From positions 20,460,001 to 20,524,000 of the forward strand of contig OX597822.1 in the NCBI GenBank assembly GCA_951406725.2: a stretch of 64,000 nt of DNA. The letters are read 5' to 3'. Origin of the DNA: Octopus vulgaris. Its lineage: Eukaryota. The notes beneath the pieces were generated by a model, which saw only the letters and a program-made list of their open reading frames with translations, ran no database searches and was not told the DNA's origin. Positions 1,192-40,779 of this stretch are shown here, in pieces. The stretch's first letter is position 1. Each line of letters begins with the position of its first letter. The translations under genes and the position numbers were made by a program.

Positions 1192-1790
1192 TTGACTATT
1201 TTTTTTTTGCACGTTAGACCACTGGAAATGTAAATTTTGATTGAATGTTTTAATTTTAATTAAATTCCATTTCCCTTTGACATGATTAAATACTGTAAGT
1301 TTTTGGATAATTTTCGGTTAAAAGTTGGCGGCTTTTCATCGTAGCCAACGAAGGACTGCGTCTGCGCAGTAAAATTTGAAAAGTTAGTTCGTATAAACAC
1401 GAGACAAGTAACCTTGTTTGTCTTGTGTTGGATATGTTTAGCCCTAGGTTTGACCTTGCTGAAGAATATCAGACCTTGTGAGTTCTCCTTGACTCGCTAA
1501 AAGATGATCAGAAACCAATTGGTCCAAGGAACTAGATAGTAAATGTTTTTCATTTCCAAATTTATTCCTGTCGAATTTTATCCGTTATTTTTGTGGTTTA
1601 CAGAACCTAGCTGTTCTTTCTAGCGTGCTGAATTCCCTATAAGTGGATTCTTTATGTGTTTAAATATACACTATATCGTATGACTAATATATAGTCTTCT
1701 TGACTAATTTTTTTTGCACGTTAAACCACTGGAAATGTAAATTTTGATTGAATGTTTTAATTTTAATTAAATTCCATTTCCCTTTGACAT
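1192..1790 (+). mobile_element. Non-coding HHR-bearing element: 508-bp monomer plus 91-bp terminal direct repeat, in (TA)n
   Basis: 1192-1283 nearly identical to 1700-1790; (TA)n on both flanks; HHR at 1454-1529. Confidence 0.8.
1454..1529 (+). ncRNA. Type-I hammerhead ribozyme motif
   Basis: CCTTG-CTGAAGA-[stem II ATCA/TGAT with inner GTGAGT/ACTCGC]-GAAA-palindromic stem III ACCAATTGGT-GTC cleavage triplet (1522-1524)-CAAGG. Confidence 0.85.
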
Positions 1791-1859
1791 TTATATATAT
1801 ACACACACACACACACACATATATATATATATATATATATATATATTAATGAACACACA

Positions 1860-2150
1860 AATAAGTGAAAGAAAATGTTAAAAGTAACACTTCCTCAGAA
1901 AGATGCAACTTCATAAATACGTTTAACGCCAACTACAACAGTATGTATGCACACTGCATTAACACGAATAGTGTTAACTATTCGTGCGTTAACACGAATA
2001 GTGAAAGTGTTCTTGCACAAATGTTCTTTGAAATAAATAAGTCTTTTAATATGAATCATTTCACTAAAAGATTGGAAGTTGGAAACATTTTGTCCATGAA
2101 ACGGGTGTCGGTATTCCACAATTAATCATATAAACCCGTGGGAAGAAAAA
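1860..2150 (+). mobile_element. Possible decayed Penelope-like 3' end
   Basis: SERCNFINTFNANYN resembles a GIY-YIG C-terminal E..FI..F.P.LN. It is followed by a degenerate HHR-like CTAAAAGA-TTGGA...TCCA-TGAAAC-GGGT-GTC (about 2064-2110). Confidence 0.35.
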
Positions 2151-3723
2151 GAGCAGTGTATTTCTGTCTTTCTAGGCACACAGCAGATTACCCCTTTTCA
2201 ACTAACTCAAAGTTGGAGACAGCCTTGGAATATATATTAAATTAAATATCCGGTATTTGGAGAGGGAATGTGTAAGGCACAATAAAGTAGGATCATTAAA
2301 ATAGAAGACAGAGCAAAGCACAAGCCGCAGTATACTTACACATAAGCTGGTTTGCAATATCTGGGAAGGAGAGACACAAATTATTGTCAGAGACATCAGA
2401 TATCGATCCCTGGCTAGAAGTCGCTTTCGTGGTACAATATTGATAGATGGTCAGTGCAAATATAACATTTTGCAATATGTAATCGGATGGGATCACCATT
2501 GACATACTAGTCCTCATGACCCCGTAAGATCACAAAACAATGCAAAAAATGACTCCTACAGAAGATAGTAAGAGAAAAACCACAAAGCTTGGCAAACAAG
2601 GTAGACAAACCAGATGTTATACATCCACTAGCAAAACTCATGTATAAAATTTTTTACACAGAGAACTGAAAAGAGTCAAAGCAACAAGTTAACAAATTAA
2701 ATGTTCCTGTCCTTATTACAAAGAGCGTGTCACCAAACCAAAAATTTTCTTCTCCGAAACACAACCCGCGAACACAACAGCTTCACCCCACGCCTTTTGC
2801 TGAACGCCAGGCAGATGGTTAATTAGATTTTACATTTTCCTGTGCATAAGATATTCACCCAGCATCTCCAATACTTGCTCCTCCGTGGATATAAAGAACC
2901 CTTTCCTTGGCAAGGTCAGTCTTTTTCTTCATATCCTATTCTCAATGTATAATTCGAACAAAGAGATGCACTTGATTTAAACACAGTTGTGCCAGTGCTC
3001 ACGTTCAAAAAAATTTACACTGAAGGAAGCTCGCGAAAAACTAATTTCATGCGTGAACATTTTCTTCGACAGCATTTCTTTTAGTGTTGTCGCTGCTCAA
3101 CGTTTATGAATCACCGAAAAAATGCTATTTTTTAAAAAAGAAAGACGCAAAGTTTTCTCTTTCTAGAACCTGTGTGTGCTATTTCAATGCAAGTTTGTTT
3201 GTGTTATTCTGCTTCGCAATGGCAAATTTGCTTTATTTTCATTTTGCCTTGGCAGGCGTCACTTCGACTCGACACCATTGCAAATGAAGTCGAAATAAAA
3301 CAAAGTTCAAAATGTCAATAAAACGTTTTTCTTCTTGGAAAGTGAATTAAATAAAATAAACTTGTCTTGTAAAATACATTTACGTGACACAGACAAGTAA
3401 AATCATATCCAATTTCTTTTTTTAAAAAAATCATTGGAAAAGGTAGTGATCCAAGTACTAACAACAAAATTAAACATCTGCACTCGTTGAAAATAACAGC
3501 CACAACAGTAATAATATTTATGAAGGTAATAATAATAATAATAATAATAATAATAATAATAATAATAATAATAATAATAATAATAATAATAATCAGAAGA
3601 AGAAGAAGAAGAAGAAGAAGAAGAAGAAGAAGAAGAAGAAGAAGAAGAAGAAGAAGAAGAAGAATTGTTATTATTATTATTATTATAATTATCATTATTA
3701 TTATCATTGTTATTATTATTATT

Positions 3724-4281
3724 GAGTGAGAGAGCAGAGCATGCCATCAAAGTGACACTGGGGTAAAATATACGAAGCCCAGTATACCCATCATGACGAC
3801 CCGTCTGATAAGGGTACACCAGGCACATGCATCACAACCATATGTGCACCACATGGTGATCTCGTATCAAGATAAACAGCACATGACCTTGCAGGTGGGG
3901 CCCAGTTAGAATTTTCTTCTGGTCGAGTAGCCCATCCCGCTCAAAAGGTCCCTGAATAAGGGTTGTTTAAGGATGTTGAACGAAACACTCATGTTTCCAG
4001 AGGTGAATTATCCAAACCCCAAAGAATCCCTTTCAACACATGGCTATGATGCTCCCCCACTACTTCTGCTCGTGATCAGAGATGCACATATCGTCAGCCA
4101 CAAAGGGACATGCTCAACTGGTTAAGGTCAAACAACTGACAAGCAAATCTGTGGTATTGAGCAGAATATTTGCTGTAGCCCATCTTTTTATACCAAGACA
4201 AAACAACGTACATAATAATACTTCTAATCAGTTAAGATCAGAAACCACGAGAGCCACTGCCTGGTACTGCATCGGGGTATT
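3724..4281 (-). mobile_element. 560-bp non-coding interspersed element in (AAT)n, full copy 1
   Basis: Nearly identical to 5478-6032; both ends embedded in (ATT)n; no ORF. Confidence 0.85.
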
Positions 4282-4324
4282 TATTATTATTATTATTATT
4301 ATTATTATTATTATTATTATTATT

Positions 4325-4815
4325 ATAATCCCCTCCGCCTTAGCGAAGGTGGAGGTATTGTTTTCAGTCGTGTTTGCTTGTTTGTTTATTCGTGGACAAG
4401 ATATCTCAAGAACCGCTGGATTTTTCGAATGAAACTTTCAGGGATGTTTGCTCACGTGACTGGTACGAACTGATTAGATTTGGGGATTGATCCGGTACTG
4501 GAGAAAGATTCTGGATTATTTTTCCTGTTATTTTTTGCTTAATTTTTGAGAGCGGACGAGTTCATTTTTAGAATTCTCGTTTGTGAGAGCAGTTTATTTC
4601 AGATATTCTCATTTCAAGAATCATCTCTGGCATATCGTTTAGAGGACGTTGGCGTAACCTTGGCGATGGTTTGTGCTCTCTGAGTGCTTTTGTTATTATT
4701 ACCTTCGCCTTAGCGAAGGTGGAGGTATTGTCTTCAGTTGTGTTTGTTCGTTTGGCCTAGTAAATGGCCCGAACTGATTAAATTTTGGGATCGAACAAGG
4801 ATTCTGGATTATTTA
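4325..4815 (+). mobile_element. HINE/DINE-1-like non-autonomous Helentron, with partial tandem second copy from about 4695
   Basis: Starts cctccgccttagcgaaggtggaggtattg followed by (GTTT)-rich tract; 3' hairpin gtgctctctgagtgc; start motif repeated at about 4700. Confidence 0.55.
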
Positions 4816-39080: not shown

Positions 39081-39082
39081 TA

Positions 39083-39450
39083 TATAAAACTGAGATTGTG
39101 TGTCTGTCTGTGTGAATCCCTAAAACTTGAGAACTACACAATCAATTTCATTCAAATTTTATACATGCCTTGCTTAGGGTCTTTGTAGTGTCTGGGCAAA
39201 AACAATTTTTAACATCTTGCCTAGGGCGAGCCCATAGCAATATCATATCTTCTCCAGTGTGAATCCCTAAAATTCGAGAACTACACAACCAACTTCATTC
39301 AAATTTTACACATGCCTTACTAAAGGTCCTTGTTGTGTCTGGGCAAAAAATGTTTAACTTCTTGCCTAGGGCGAGCCCACAGCAATATTTCATCTTCTCC
39401 ACTATTTCAGTATTACGTGTTAAAAGTGAAACAAAAGCATCTCTCTATTG
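39083..39450 (+). mobile_element. Helitron-like 5' fragment with ~147-bp tandem duplication
   Basis: tataaaactgagattgtgtgtctg start like 32631; gtgtgaatccctaaaa...tatcttctcca duplicated (about 39110-39257 / 39258-39401). Confidence 0.5.
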
Positions 39451-39743
39451 TATGTATATGGATGTGTATATATATATATATATATATATATATATATATA
39501 TATATATATATATATATATATTAATCAATATCAGGGTAGCAAAAAATTCAATAGAAATTTTTTTGCCACCAGCGGTCTAGTGAGAAAGAAAAAATAGTCA
39601 ACAGACTATATAATGTACATTCAACGATAATATTAAGGAATGGCCTTAATAGGCCATTCAACTCACTAAAACGAGCAGCCAAACTCAAGCCGCTAAATAG
39701 TAGTAATTCAGAAATCAAAGGAAAATTAAAAACATTTACCCTT

Positions 39744-39849
39744 CTTTGGACTATGCATAGTTTAGACGTCCTTTTTGGCAAACCAGCTTAATTAAATTAA
39801 GTTAAATTTAATCAAGTCAATTTACCACTGGCCCGTCTCATCGGCAAAG
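39744..39849 (-). ncRNA. Hammerhead motif with G12 mutated (TAAA), probably inactive
   Basis: CTTTG-CCGATGA-GACG...CGTC-TAAA-perfect palindrome ACTATGCATAGT-C-CAAAG. Confidence 0.7.
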
Positions 39850-40430
39850 AAGCCAGGGGGAGTATATATTCCACGAGGCAACAGCATCGATGCCTTGGGA
39901 ATATATACTCTAAATTTTCAAAATCTACCGTCATCGCGCCAACTTATCAGCAGCAAATATAAACTGCTGATTTAATTTCAGAATTAGCCAAAAAATCATT
40001 AATTAATCAATATCAGGGTAGCAAAAAATTCAATAGAATTTTTTTCGCCACCAGCGGGCTTGTGAGAAAGAAAAAATAGTCAACAGACTATATAATGTAC
40101 ATTTAACAATAATATTAAGGAATGGCCTTAATAGGCCATTCAACTCACTAAAACGAGCAGCTAAACTCAAACCGCTAAATAGTAGTAATTCAGTAATCAA
40201 AGGAAAATTAAAAACATTTACCCTTATCATCTTTGGACTATGCATTGTTTCGACGTACTTTTTGGCAAACCAGCTTAGATGATAAAGGTAAATGTTTTTA
40301 ATTTTCCTTTGATTTCTGAATTACTAATGCTGATAGGTTGGCGCGATGAAGGTAGATTTTGAAAATTTAGAGTATATATTCCCAAGGCATCGATGCTGTT
40401 GCCTCGTGGAATATATACTCCCCCTGGCTT

Positions 40431-40536
40431 CTTTGCCGATGAGACGGGCCAGTGGTAAATTGACTTGATTAAATTAAATTTAATTTAATTAAGCTGGTTT
40501 GCCAAAACGTACGTCGAAACCATGCATAGTCCAAAG
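40431..40536 (+). ncRNA. Type-I hammerhead motif with long stem II (U4C core variant)
   Basis: CTTTG-CCGATGA-GACG-(65-nt hairpin)-CGTC-GAAAC-CATGCATA-GTC-CAAAG. Confidence 0.8.
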
Positions 40537-40779
40537 GTGATAAGGGTAAATGTTTATATGTATATGTATAGATGTCTTTCTATAGATATACATGTATATA
40601 TAAATATGTATGTCTAGATGTATATATAGATGTACATGTAATGTGTACACACACACACACACACACATATATATATATATATATATATATATATATATAT
40701 ATATATATATATATATATACATGCATACATATATACACCCATACACACATACACACTGATCCACCCCACACACACACAT

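Follow-up and report, generated by a model that had tools for sequence, protein, structure and literature searches.

Animal non-LTR retrozymes, which as described in the main text of two reports are low-GC, ORF-less, head-to-tail units with a type-I hammerhead, co-occur with Penelope-like elements (PLEs) and have already been proposed to be parasites mobilised by them (PMC7229834; bioRxiv 10.64898/2026.07.22.740005). According to the same texts, their units measure 150-450 nt (PMC7229834) or 51-972 nt (bioRxiv 10.64898/2026.07.22.740005), form long arrays and yield circular RNA, and one of nine tested retrozyme dimers cleaved (bioRxiv 10.64898/2026.07.22.740005). Among autonomous elements, Neptune-clade PLEs (PMC4209133, PMC8557442, PMC11167929) combine RT, a Cys linker and GIY-YIG with tandem arrangement, (TA)n targets and minimal hammerheads that have an extra base after A9 and an ACGU stem III. 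The PLE tail has been tied to two RT start sites, a feature described as unique to PLEs, and an anole PLE inserts in vitro without need for cleavage, with zero RNA-seq reads ending at the cut (PMC11167929). Also comparable are the SINE-like Schistosoma elements Sm-alpha/Sj-alpha (PMC6765202, PMC8490949), which couple a Pol III-type head with a type-I hammerhead, and MRC1 and other Chlamys PLEs of the non-autonomous kind (PMC8557442). The latter are PLE-moved, non-coding units with pLTR-like partial tandems; in general, an autonomous family that is already known has the same 3' sequence, and most of them have no hammerheads.

Here we describe five hammerhead-bearing families (E1 to E5) from a 64,000-nt stretch of the Octopus vulgaris genome (contig OX597822.1, positions 20,460,001 to 20,524,000; hereafter "the window"). 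E1, E3 and E5 have in common with the retrozymes a low-GC (32-34%), ORF-less, head-to-tail unit with a type-I hammerhead and the co-occurrence with PLEs; their units of 482-508 nt exceed the first published size range and fall within the second. Unlike the retrozymes of long arrays, their copies are dispersed, comprise 0.2-2 units and have inverted arms, and the families are known from genomic sequence, whereas circular RNA is an established retrozyme trait. E2 resembles Sm-alpha in its head and hammerhead; however, Sm-alpha is tandem by description, whereas E2 occurs as scattered copies whose 5' head is fixed, whose hammerhead is of the minimal PLE type and whose insertions are two-ended and inverted in PLE fashion. 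A PLE-type tail and inverted-arm architecture is common to all five families, the tails of E1, E3 and E5 being ~90-110 nt long vs. 30-40 nt in canonical PLEs. Unlike the Chlamys elements, the mini-elements carry hammerheads and match no autonomous family among the PLE loci fetched. No named cephalopod retrozyme family appears in the main text of either retrozyme report, although their supplements may list some. The families are real and newly found, and the kind itself, PLE-parasite retrozymes, is already published.

Results

Six type-I hammerhead motifs lie in the window where a previous sequence-only reading had placed them, with the stem III palindromes it had described, and each is kept across genomic copies. 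A strict descriptor recovered three of the six, vs. one match in 30 local dinucleotide shuffles, and an Rfam search of the window at E ≤ 1 reported none of the six. Relaxed-descriptor matches at 3976, 5728, 19324, 42322 and others, which had no stem II base, were dropped. The E1 motif (1454-1529, forward strand) has a canonical core (CUGAAGA/GAAA), stem III ACCAAUUGGU, a predicted cut after 1524 and a weak stem II base, the commonest form of which is an A-C mismatch (16/37). On the reverse strand follow the minimal E2 hammerhead (7386-7430) and the E3 motif (8204-8256). Both have a canonical core (CUGACGA/GAAA in E3); stem III reads ACGU in E2 and AUCGGU in E3, and cleavage is predicted at 7390/7389 and 8209/8208, respectively. 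The minimal E4 hammerhead (37318-37355, forward), 103 nt from the 3' end of its element, carries a family-wide A6U change (core CUGUNGA; 43 of 44 sequences in the copy set) that was not found in the literature searched for such a variant. Both E5 motifs are U4C, as are 32 of the 34 E5 sequences in the copy set: the direct-arm motif (39744-39849, reverse) has in addition a G12U private to this copy, and the inverted-arm motif (40431-40536, forward) has a long stem II, stem III ACCAUGCAUAGU and a predicted cut after 40531.

Decay of the core across copies, which the sequence-only reading had itself named as grounds for abandoning it, was not seen: all 11 core positions agree with the family majority in 31/39 E1, 30/51 E2, 35/37 E3, 40/44 E4 and 28/34 E5 sequences, in copy sets that are the best 30 of 40 scored hits and are therefore biased towards young copies. 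In E4 and its relatives, variation is limited to N7 and H17, both of them tolerant positions. For E5, double changes occur in stem III in 6/38 copies, along with two further variants, and in stem I in 2/38. The complete hammerhead is absent from the minimum-energy folds of E1, E2, E3 and E5.

E1 (1192-1790, forward) is an ORF-less element made up of a 508-nt unit and, ahead of it, ~90 nt from the tail of another; it is flanked by (TA)n tracts and has a short 3' end near 1680 and a long one near 1790. E5 as a whole spans 39522-40558: its direct arm (39522-40277, reverse) holds a 482-nt unit, part of a preceding one and the 3' half of a second hammerhead (40231-40255), and has its long 3' end in (TA)n, and its inverted arm occupies 40278-40558 (forward). 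The five carriers had been considered unrelated in sequence; E1 and E5 nonetheless have their whole post-cleavage half and tail in common (z = 9.2, 0/500 shuffles; z = 6.9, 0/200 shuffles) and are part of a larger superfamily with 1,710 tail-motif matches. Eight hammerheads of this superfamily differ in their stems and keep the core, with a palindromic or near-palindromic stem III.

E3 (7956-8380, reverse) is likewise ORF-less, with a unit of ~497 nt. The 244-nt monomer previously suggested for it has to be given up, as other copies repeat at 496-497 nt and the window copy is rearranged and 5'-truncated, 8301-8380 being a duplicate of 8057-8135 in this copy only. The longest ATG frames of E1, E3 and E5 have 26, 41 and 71 codons. 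The long 3' end continues into the unit start at 14/28 E3 and 21/29 E5 loci. Exact-match patterns placed two complete hammerheads one unit apart at at least two loci each for E1 and E3 (L036 and L039 for the latter) and, as a lower bound, at neither of two E5 candidate loci, both of which end short. We encountered no run of at least three units.

The copies of E1, E2, E3 and E5 have a tail with two 3' ends, are 5'-truncated at random points and form inverted arms. Measured from the cut, the two ends lie at about +160/+270 (E1), +169/+270 (E3) and +140/+229 (E5), i.e., fixed and ~90-110 nt apart, and those of E2 are ~30 nt apart (17/48 and 29/48 of ends, best 30 of 40 scored hits). In the copy sets, (TA)n follows the long end in 32/34 E1, 26/32 E3, 20/21 E4, 23/24 E5 and 10/47 E2 cases. 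Since four non-coding families carry these PLE insertion marks, it is probable that the ORF-less, ~500-nt E1, E3 and E5 and the tRNA-headed E2 are copied by the RT/GIY-YIG protein of autonomous PLEs. Such a protein would bind the tail, nick both target strands and start cDNA at two internal sites, and the joining of two cDNAs would then produce an inverted pair. The (TA)n preference of E1, E3 and E5 points to a Neptune-type partner, and the 30-nt tail and loose AT-rich targets of E2 to one of Penelope/Poseidon type.

E2 (7306-7682, reverse; 2,325 exact matches) consists of a tRNA-like head with A and B box (7607-7682), an (AAT)n spacer, the hammerhead body and a PLE-type tail of ~30 nt (7306-7338), and brings to four the non-coding carriers, previously counted as three. 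An ATG within its hammerhead core starts a 25-codon frame. The Pol III boxes stand at constant spacing (A box in 17/33 heads, B box in 22/33, both in 11/33); ARAGORN calls a tRNA in the head solely at a lowered threshold and none at its default, and Rfam reports none. Among the best 30 of 40 scored hits, a same-orientation head is present at 11/30 loci and an inverted arm, often with a head of its own, at 18/30; a tail-to-head join occurs at none of 302 loci. The 3' end is formed by the hammerhead and PLE-type tail, with the simple repeat internal, and not by the LINE-derived sequence with simple-repeat terminus expected of a tRNA-derived SINE. A pattern for a longer E2 end gave no match. Judged by this structure, E2 belongs with linear, SINE-like elements and not with units of circle type, and it may be a new type of hammerhead-bearing PLE parasite. 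The window copy lies inside a decayed RLE-type LINE; the broken ORF upstream of 7387 was rejected as a PLE because its relatives are RLE-type LINEs, and the diverged endonuclease that lies close to one copy of E2 (L297) proved to be unrelated.

The RT/GIY-YIG element that had been read in the window is confirmed (RVT_1, E = 2.6e-8; GIY-YIG, E = 0.039, under the cut-off). This E4 copy (33453-37453, forward) contains an ORF in several broken frames (34222-36510) for RT, then a Cys zinc-finger-like linker (CxxxxCxxC), which also occurs in Nematis (PMC8557442), and, at the C terminus, GIY-YIG, with a SINE-like repeat in its 5' part (about 33790-34197). From its domain layout, (TA)n targets and hammerhead near the 3' end, the latter showing the ACGU stem III and the additional base behind A9 that are found in the Neptune clade, E4 is classed as a PLE of Neptune type, and it is a young one. 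It has a single 3' end with tandem run-on: upstream lies the PLE 3' UTR/ORF and downstream, at 3/30 loci (best 30 of 40 scored hits), the next ORF start.

Intact Neptune-type ORFs of 781 aa are present in the genome. Of 6,136 GIY-YIG candidates, the partner search covered 30 of 150 scored and 12 longer stretches, among which no autonomous PLE had the ends of E1, E2, E3 or E5. The window PLE and the mini-elements have no end sequence in common, and the tails of E1, E2, E3 and E5 are not similar to E4 and two other Neptune-type families. One E5-E2 tail score was matched by 4/500 shuffles. E3-like and E5-like pieces adjoining PLE ORFs (L162, L153) look like insertions and were rejected as partner ends. 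At one locus (L406), the long end of a superfamily unit is joined, with no (TA)n, to a Neptune-type copy truncated at its 5' end, a lone case that could be a nested insertion instead.

Read-through of the cut by more than 8 nt was found in 24/61 E1, 21/36 E3 and 30/36 E5 segments. With many cDNAs passing the cleavage site and exceeding one unit, the template would be a circle or an uncleaved multimer. The rare loci with a tandem hammerhead pair may set free an RNA of unit length for closure by a host ligase, whereas E2 RNA would be a linear product of Pol III in which the minimal hammerhead mostly remains uncut. E1 5' ends pile 0-30 nt downstream of the cut (18/45 at risk vs. 7/52 and 4/27 in the adjoining bins, the bins being set after the fact and the two arms of one insertion not independent), and the pile remained when, given a possible query-edge effect, queries were placed further downstream. 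E3 has no pile at the cut and one elsewhere, unrelated to it; the U4C family E5 has none just after the cut. In four sequencing runs guessed to be RNA, contigs cover E1, E2 and E3, and single-copy stretches have none; most E1 depth in one of the runs (X1) comes from a single 423-nt contig. Contigs reveal neither strand nor termini nor circularity, and they would look the same for a tandem as for a circle closed at the cut, so that we do not count them as evidence.

Discussion

The sequence-only reading had proposed several families of self-cleaving mini-elements mobilised by PLEs. Several non-autonomous hammerhead families with a two-3'-end, inverted-arm footprint do stand; the window PLE, on the other hand, shares no end sequence with them, E2 appears linear and SINE-like, and the concept was already in print. 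That reading would also have failed if every carrier were a terminal repeat (pLTR) of some autonomous PLE, solo or truncated, with no independent parasite, as the minimal hammerheads of other animals mostly are (truncated PLEs, PMC4209133) and as E4 is, its 3' end continuing upstream into PLE 3' UTR/ORF. For the set as a whole this is most improbable: upstream of the E1, E3 and E5 unit lies its own tail instead of an ORF end, and since the 3' end of these short-framed units continues into their own start, the head-to-tail junctions contradict an origin as solo terminal repeats; in E2, a tRNA-like 5' end recurs. Movement by a LINE (RTE, CR1 or R4/Dong type), as for ordinary SINEs, would concern E2 above all, as its tRNA-like head and (AAT)n tract resemble many SINEs and its window copy sits in a LINE. 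It is nevertheless very improbable, given that the (AAT)n is not 3'-terminal, that both 3' ends fall at fixed sites of non-repetitive sequence and are accompanied by frequent inverted arms, and that an association with LINEs is limited to 2/30 loci (best 30 of 40 scored hits).

A more serious objection accepts mobilisation by PLEs and takes the hammerheads to be inactive relics or protein-binding structures, uncleaved tandem transcripts being copied with no circles. Most cDNAs indeed run past the cut, U4C is fixed in E5 and A6U in E4, changes at these core positions (4 and 6) lower activity in vitro (PMC3088659), and the anole PLE dispenses with cleavage (PMC11167929). However, cores are intact despite stem divergence in at least eight subfamilies, variation in E4 and its relatives is confined to the tolerant positions, and E1 5' ends pile just past the cut, although those of E3 do not. 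We regard inactivity as unlikely, and retain PLE mobilisation of putatively self-cleaving families as the preferred reading.

It is tempting to go further and tentatively see in this genome a Penelope-dependent SINE (E2), a radiation of circular-RNA parasites (E1/E5) and a young PLE with a protein-dependent A6U hammerhead. In this joint picture, a Pol III tRNA promoter would have captured, from an element of Penelope/Poseidon type, the region of the hammerhead and ORF start to form E2, which PLE two-strand insertion then spread to thousands of sites, and the genomic E1/E5 copies would record in-vivo cleavage, with a 5'-end pile in canonical-core E1 and not in U4C E5. A SINE-PLE partnership was not found in the literature searched.

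So far the link between retrozymes and PLEs has consisted of co-occurrence and pLTR similarity; here, the PLE insertion footprint is found on ORF-less units. Now that the two start sites are mapped, the in-vitro assay that exists for PLEs can be used to test the question. Young families with naturally varying cores (U4C, A6U and U3-A8) offer substrates for the question of protein-assisted cleavage, and E2, if its reading is true, would extend SINE partnerships to PLEs.

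Hammerhead motifs are conserved across dispersed genomic families

Overall, all six type I hammerhead motifs proposed by the sequence-only reading are present, each with the palindromic or near-palindromic stem III it described. A strict descriptor recovered three of the six (vs. one match in 30 shuffled windows), the other three being missed because of a weak stem or of a change private to the copy, and an Rfam search of the window recovered 0/6. Copy searches of the genome indicate that each of the five carriers belongs to a dispersed family. The first search returned 1,669 candidate places for E1 (hammerhead at 1454), 2,097 for E3 (8204), 2,654 for E5 (39744/40431), 1,234 for E4 (a Neptune-type Penelope-like element, PLE; 37318) and, with flank, 5,613 for E2 (a tRNA-headed SINE-like carrier; 7387), these being places rather than copy numbers, with 40 scored and 30 fetched per family. 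Exact matching gave 43 genomic occurrences of a 21-mer from the E5 hammerhead and 2,325 of a degenerate 32-mer from E2.

Core nucleotides are kept in the majority of sequences of every family, with the family-majority base at all 11 core positions in 31/39 (E1), 30/51 (E2), 35/37 (E3), 28/34 (E5) and 40/44 (E4) sequences. The E5 core carries U4C in 32/34 sequences and the E4 core A6U in 43/44, 14 of them from other loci with varying N7 and H17. In the part of PMC3088659 covered, A6C activity is low and U4C is tolerated; no description of an A6U core was found in open-access text.

The fetched flanks (747 kb) contained, as chance finds, about a dozen more hammerhead families (L017, L023, L038, L047, L057, L081, L086, L090, L124, L131, L159, L185 and others). 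Their stem III is mostly palindromic (ACAGCTGT, ACTCGAGT, ACATATGT, ACGTACGT, ACGATCGT, ACTAGT), and some have U4C or U3-A8 cores. An abundant repeat with two copies in the window, at 3976-4105 and 5728-5857 (minus), holds CUGACGA and GAAACAUGGGUGUU ~93 nt apart, a pairing without stem II base that is probably due to chance.

E1, E3 and E5 are ORF-less units with a PLE-type footprint

E1, E3 and E5 are not solo PLE terminal repeats, as the longer of their two fixed 3' ends leads directly into the start of their own unit, at 21/29 E5 and 14/28 E3 loci. The corresponding E1 count (30/30) is built into the query, and E1 5' ends beyond the unit junction are also present in an unbiased copy set. 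Units measure 508 nt (E1), 482-488 nt (E5) and 496-497 nt (E3), the previously suggested 244-nt monomer being a rearrangement private to the E3 copy of the window. GC content is 32-34%, and the longest ATG frames reach 26, 71 and 41 codons in E1, E5 and E3, respectively. In each family ~90-110 nt (the “tail”) separate the short and long 3' ends, 5' truncation is random and inverted arms are frequent, and insertions lie within (TA)n (E1 32/34, E5 23/24, E3 26/32). Such a tail is described in PMC11167929 (in part) as the product of two internal reverse transcriptase (RT) start sites, one per target strand, and as unique to PLEs. A Neptune-type copy bears, at its 3' end, a diverged E3 relative (73-77% identity) arranged as an inverted pair (L162/L182:5034-5491).

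The carriers had been called sequence-unrelated, but alignment of E1 and E5 shows that these two are relatives, through both their tails (z = 9.2, 0/500 shuffles) and the stretch after the predicted cleavage site, or cut (z = 6.9, 0/200 shuffles); E3 matched neither. The tail hairpin common to E1 and E5 has 1,710 genomic matches (vs. 7 for a control), and the first 30 such places plus 20 from a second search held further subfamilies, with an E5 sister carrying the canonical U4 among the tail-hairpin places. Eight distinct hammerheads are listed for this superfamily; their stems differ, but they share one core, and stem III is palindromic or nearly so in each. Double changes affect stem III in 6/38 E5 copies and stem I in 2/38, and the base of E1 stem II is mismatched in the commonest form (16/37), with two different pairings in 8 and 6. 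Minimum-energy folds of E1, E2, E3 and E5 lacked a complete hammerhead, and in E1 the cut is predicted to be hideable in an alternative helix.

Copying passes the predicted cleavage site

cDNA segments extend >8 nt past the cut in 24/61 (E1), 21/36 (E3) and 30/36 (E5) cases, and up to 956 nt in E3. Because cDNA passes the cut, the template would be a circle or an uncleaved multimer, two forms that look identical from DNA. Two complete hammerheads one unit apart are found at two loci each for E1 and E3 (L036 and L039 for the latter), E5 offers two candidates, both cut short, and no longer arrays were seen among the E1, E3 and E5 loci examined. The 5' ends of E1 copies are concentrated 0-30 nt downstream of the cut (18/45 at risk, vs. 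7/52 and 4/27 in adjacent bins), with five at +11, where stem I ends, a pattern that would fit either cleaved templates or RT stalling. This pile remains a lead, since E3 shows 1/22 in that interval and has its own pile elsewhere, with 10/36 5' ends within 7 nt at +72 to +78, unrelated to the cleavage site and perhaps reflecting an RT stall at a hairpin.

E4 and the candidate partner PLEs

E4 is by type an ordinary autonomous PLE. The RT-encoding Penelope element first recognized from the sequence indeed has an RT domain (RVT_1, E = 2.6e-8) and a Cys linker, followed by a GIY-YIG-like end under the cut-off (E = 0.039), and the coding region of the window copy is split over several frames. Its 3' 309 nt are 99-100% identical among the 40 best copies, and its 3' end is followed by (TA)n in 20/21 cases and continues into the next 5' UTR and ORF start at 3/30 loci. 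By description rather than by tree, linker and target resemble the Neptune clade (PMC8557442, in part).

Directly behind the PLE 3' end, at TA, lies an element with 226-bp terminal inverted repeats (window 37454-39082) and a decayed minus-strand transposase. By its motif, we take this transposase to be Tc1/mariner-like. A PiggyBac-type transposase fragment lies at 27502-28095 (DDE_Tnp_1_7, E = 3e-26).

Neptune-type PLEs form several families in this genome, of which some include intact 781-aa ORFs, and every family has a hammerhead variant of its own (U3-A8 or U4C). A GIY-YIG search gave 6,136 candidate places, of which 150 were scored; the 30 examined, plus 12 longer stretches, held no ends common to Neptune-type families and E1, E2, E3 or E5. 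At one locus (L406, G000:C1:13175625-13178642, minus), the long 3' end of a superfamily unit lacks (TA)n and is fused to a 5'-truncated Neptune-type copy, which is 89% identical to one of these Neptune-type families and has no upstream remainder. This chimera, a single case with no second among 40 scored places, fits a template switch by the RT of that family. A young two-ORF Neptune-type PLE (L181-L184; ~4.8-kb unit) has a 781-aa RT-EN frame overlapping the upstream ORF. Its hammerhead is of the U3-A8 type, and its 3' part contains repeated CCAAT/TGACGTC motifs that precede a TATA-like box. A decayed, divergent PLE endonuclease region (L297:109-741) is presumably Hydra-like, judging from its motifs.

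E2 may be a new variant

E2 combines a tRNA-like head, (AAT)n, a minimal hammerhead and a 30-nt tail, with A and B boxes both intact in 11/33 heads at constant spacing; its window copy lies within a decayed RLE-type LINE. Among 30 loci chosen by 3' end alone, 11 have a same-orientation head upstream and 18 an inverted arm, and in a wider set of 302 loci none joins tail to head. Targets are mostly not (TA)n, which is present in 10/47. An ATG within the hammerhead core opens 25 codons, and the long 3' end lies ~117 nt further on. This parallels, suggestively only, the Poseidon element of the anole, in which the ORF begins at stem II and reverse transcription at +111-118 (PMC11167929, in part). 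E2 may be a new variant; no PLE-dependent tRNA SINE was found described in open-access text, and Sm-alpha is a Pol III hammerhead element (PMC6765202, PMC8490949, both in part).

New families of a known kind of system

In the covered parts of earlier work, PMC4209133 reports that PLE repeats contain minimal hammerheads, and describes the U3-A8 form and a circle hypothesis. PMC7229834 defines animal non-LTR retrozymes, shows that coral, mussel and axolotl have such circles, and names PLEs as likely drivers. A preprint, likewise in part, argues from vertebrates, insects and a coral that these retrozymes are non-autonomous PLE derivatives, with 1/9 tested dimers cleaved (bioRxiv 10.64898/2026.07.22.740005). 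For cephalopods, 235 Hammerhead_1 loci were counted in giant squid (PMC6962438, in part) and 190 Penelope-like families in an octopus, hammerheads being unmentioned in the parts covered (PMC13282606); open-access text yielded no description of hammerheads in octopus.

The original observation is thus real, with three corrections needed. Its proposal of several hammerhead mini-element families mobilised by PLEs holds for the PLE-type insertion structure, while catalysis, circles and a partner PLE are inferred for these families. Together, E1 to E5 belong to an already known kind of system, whose member families here are new, and the structural evidence for PLE mobilisation is better than co-occurrence alone.
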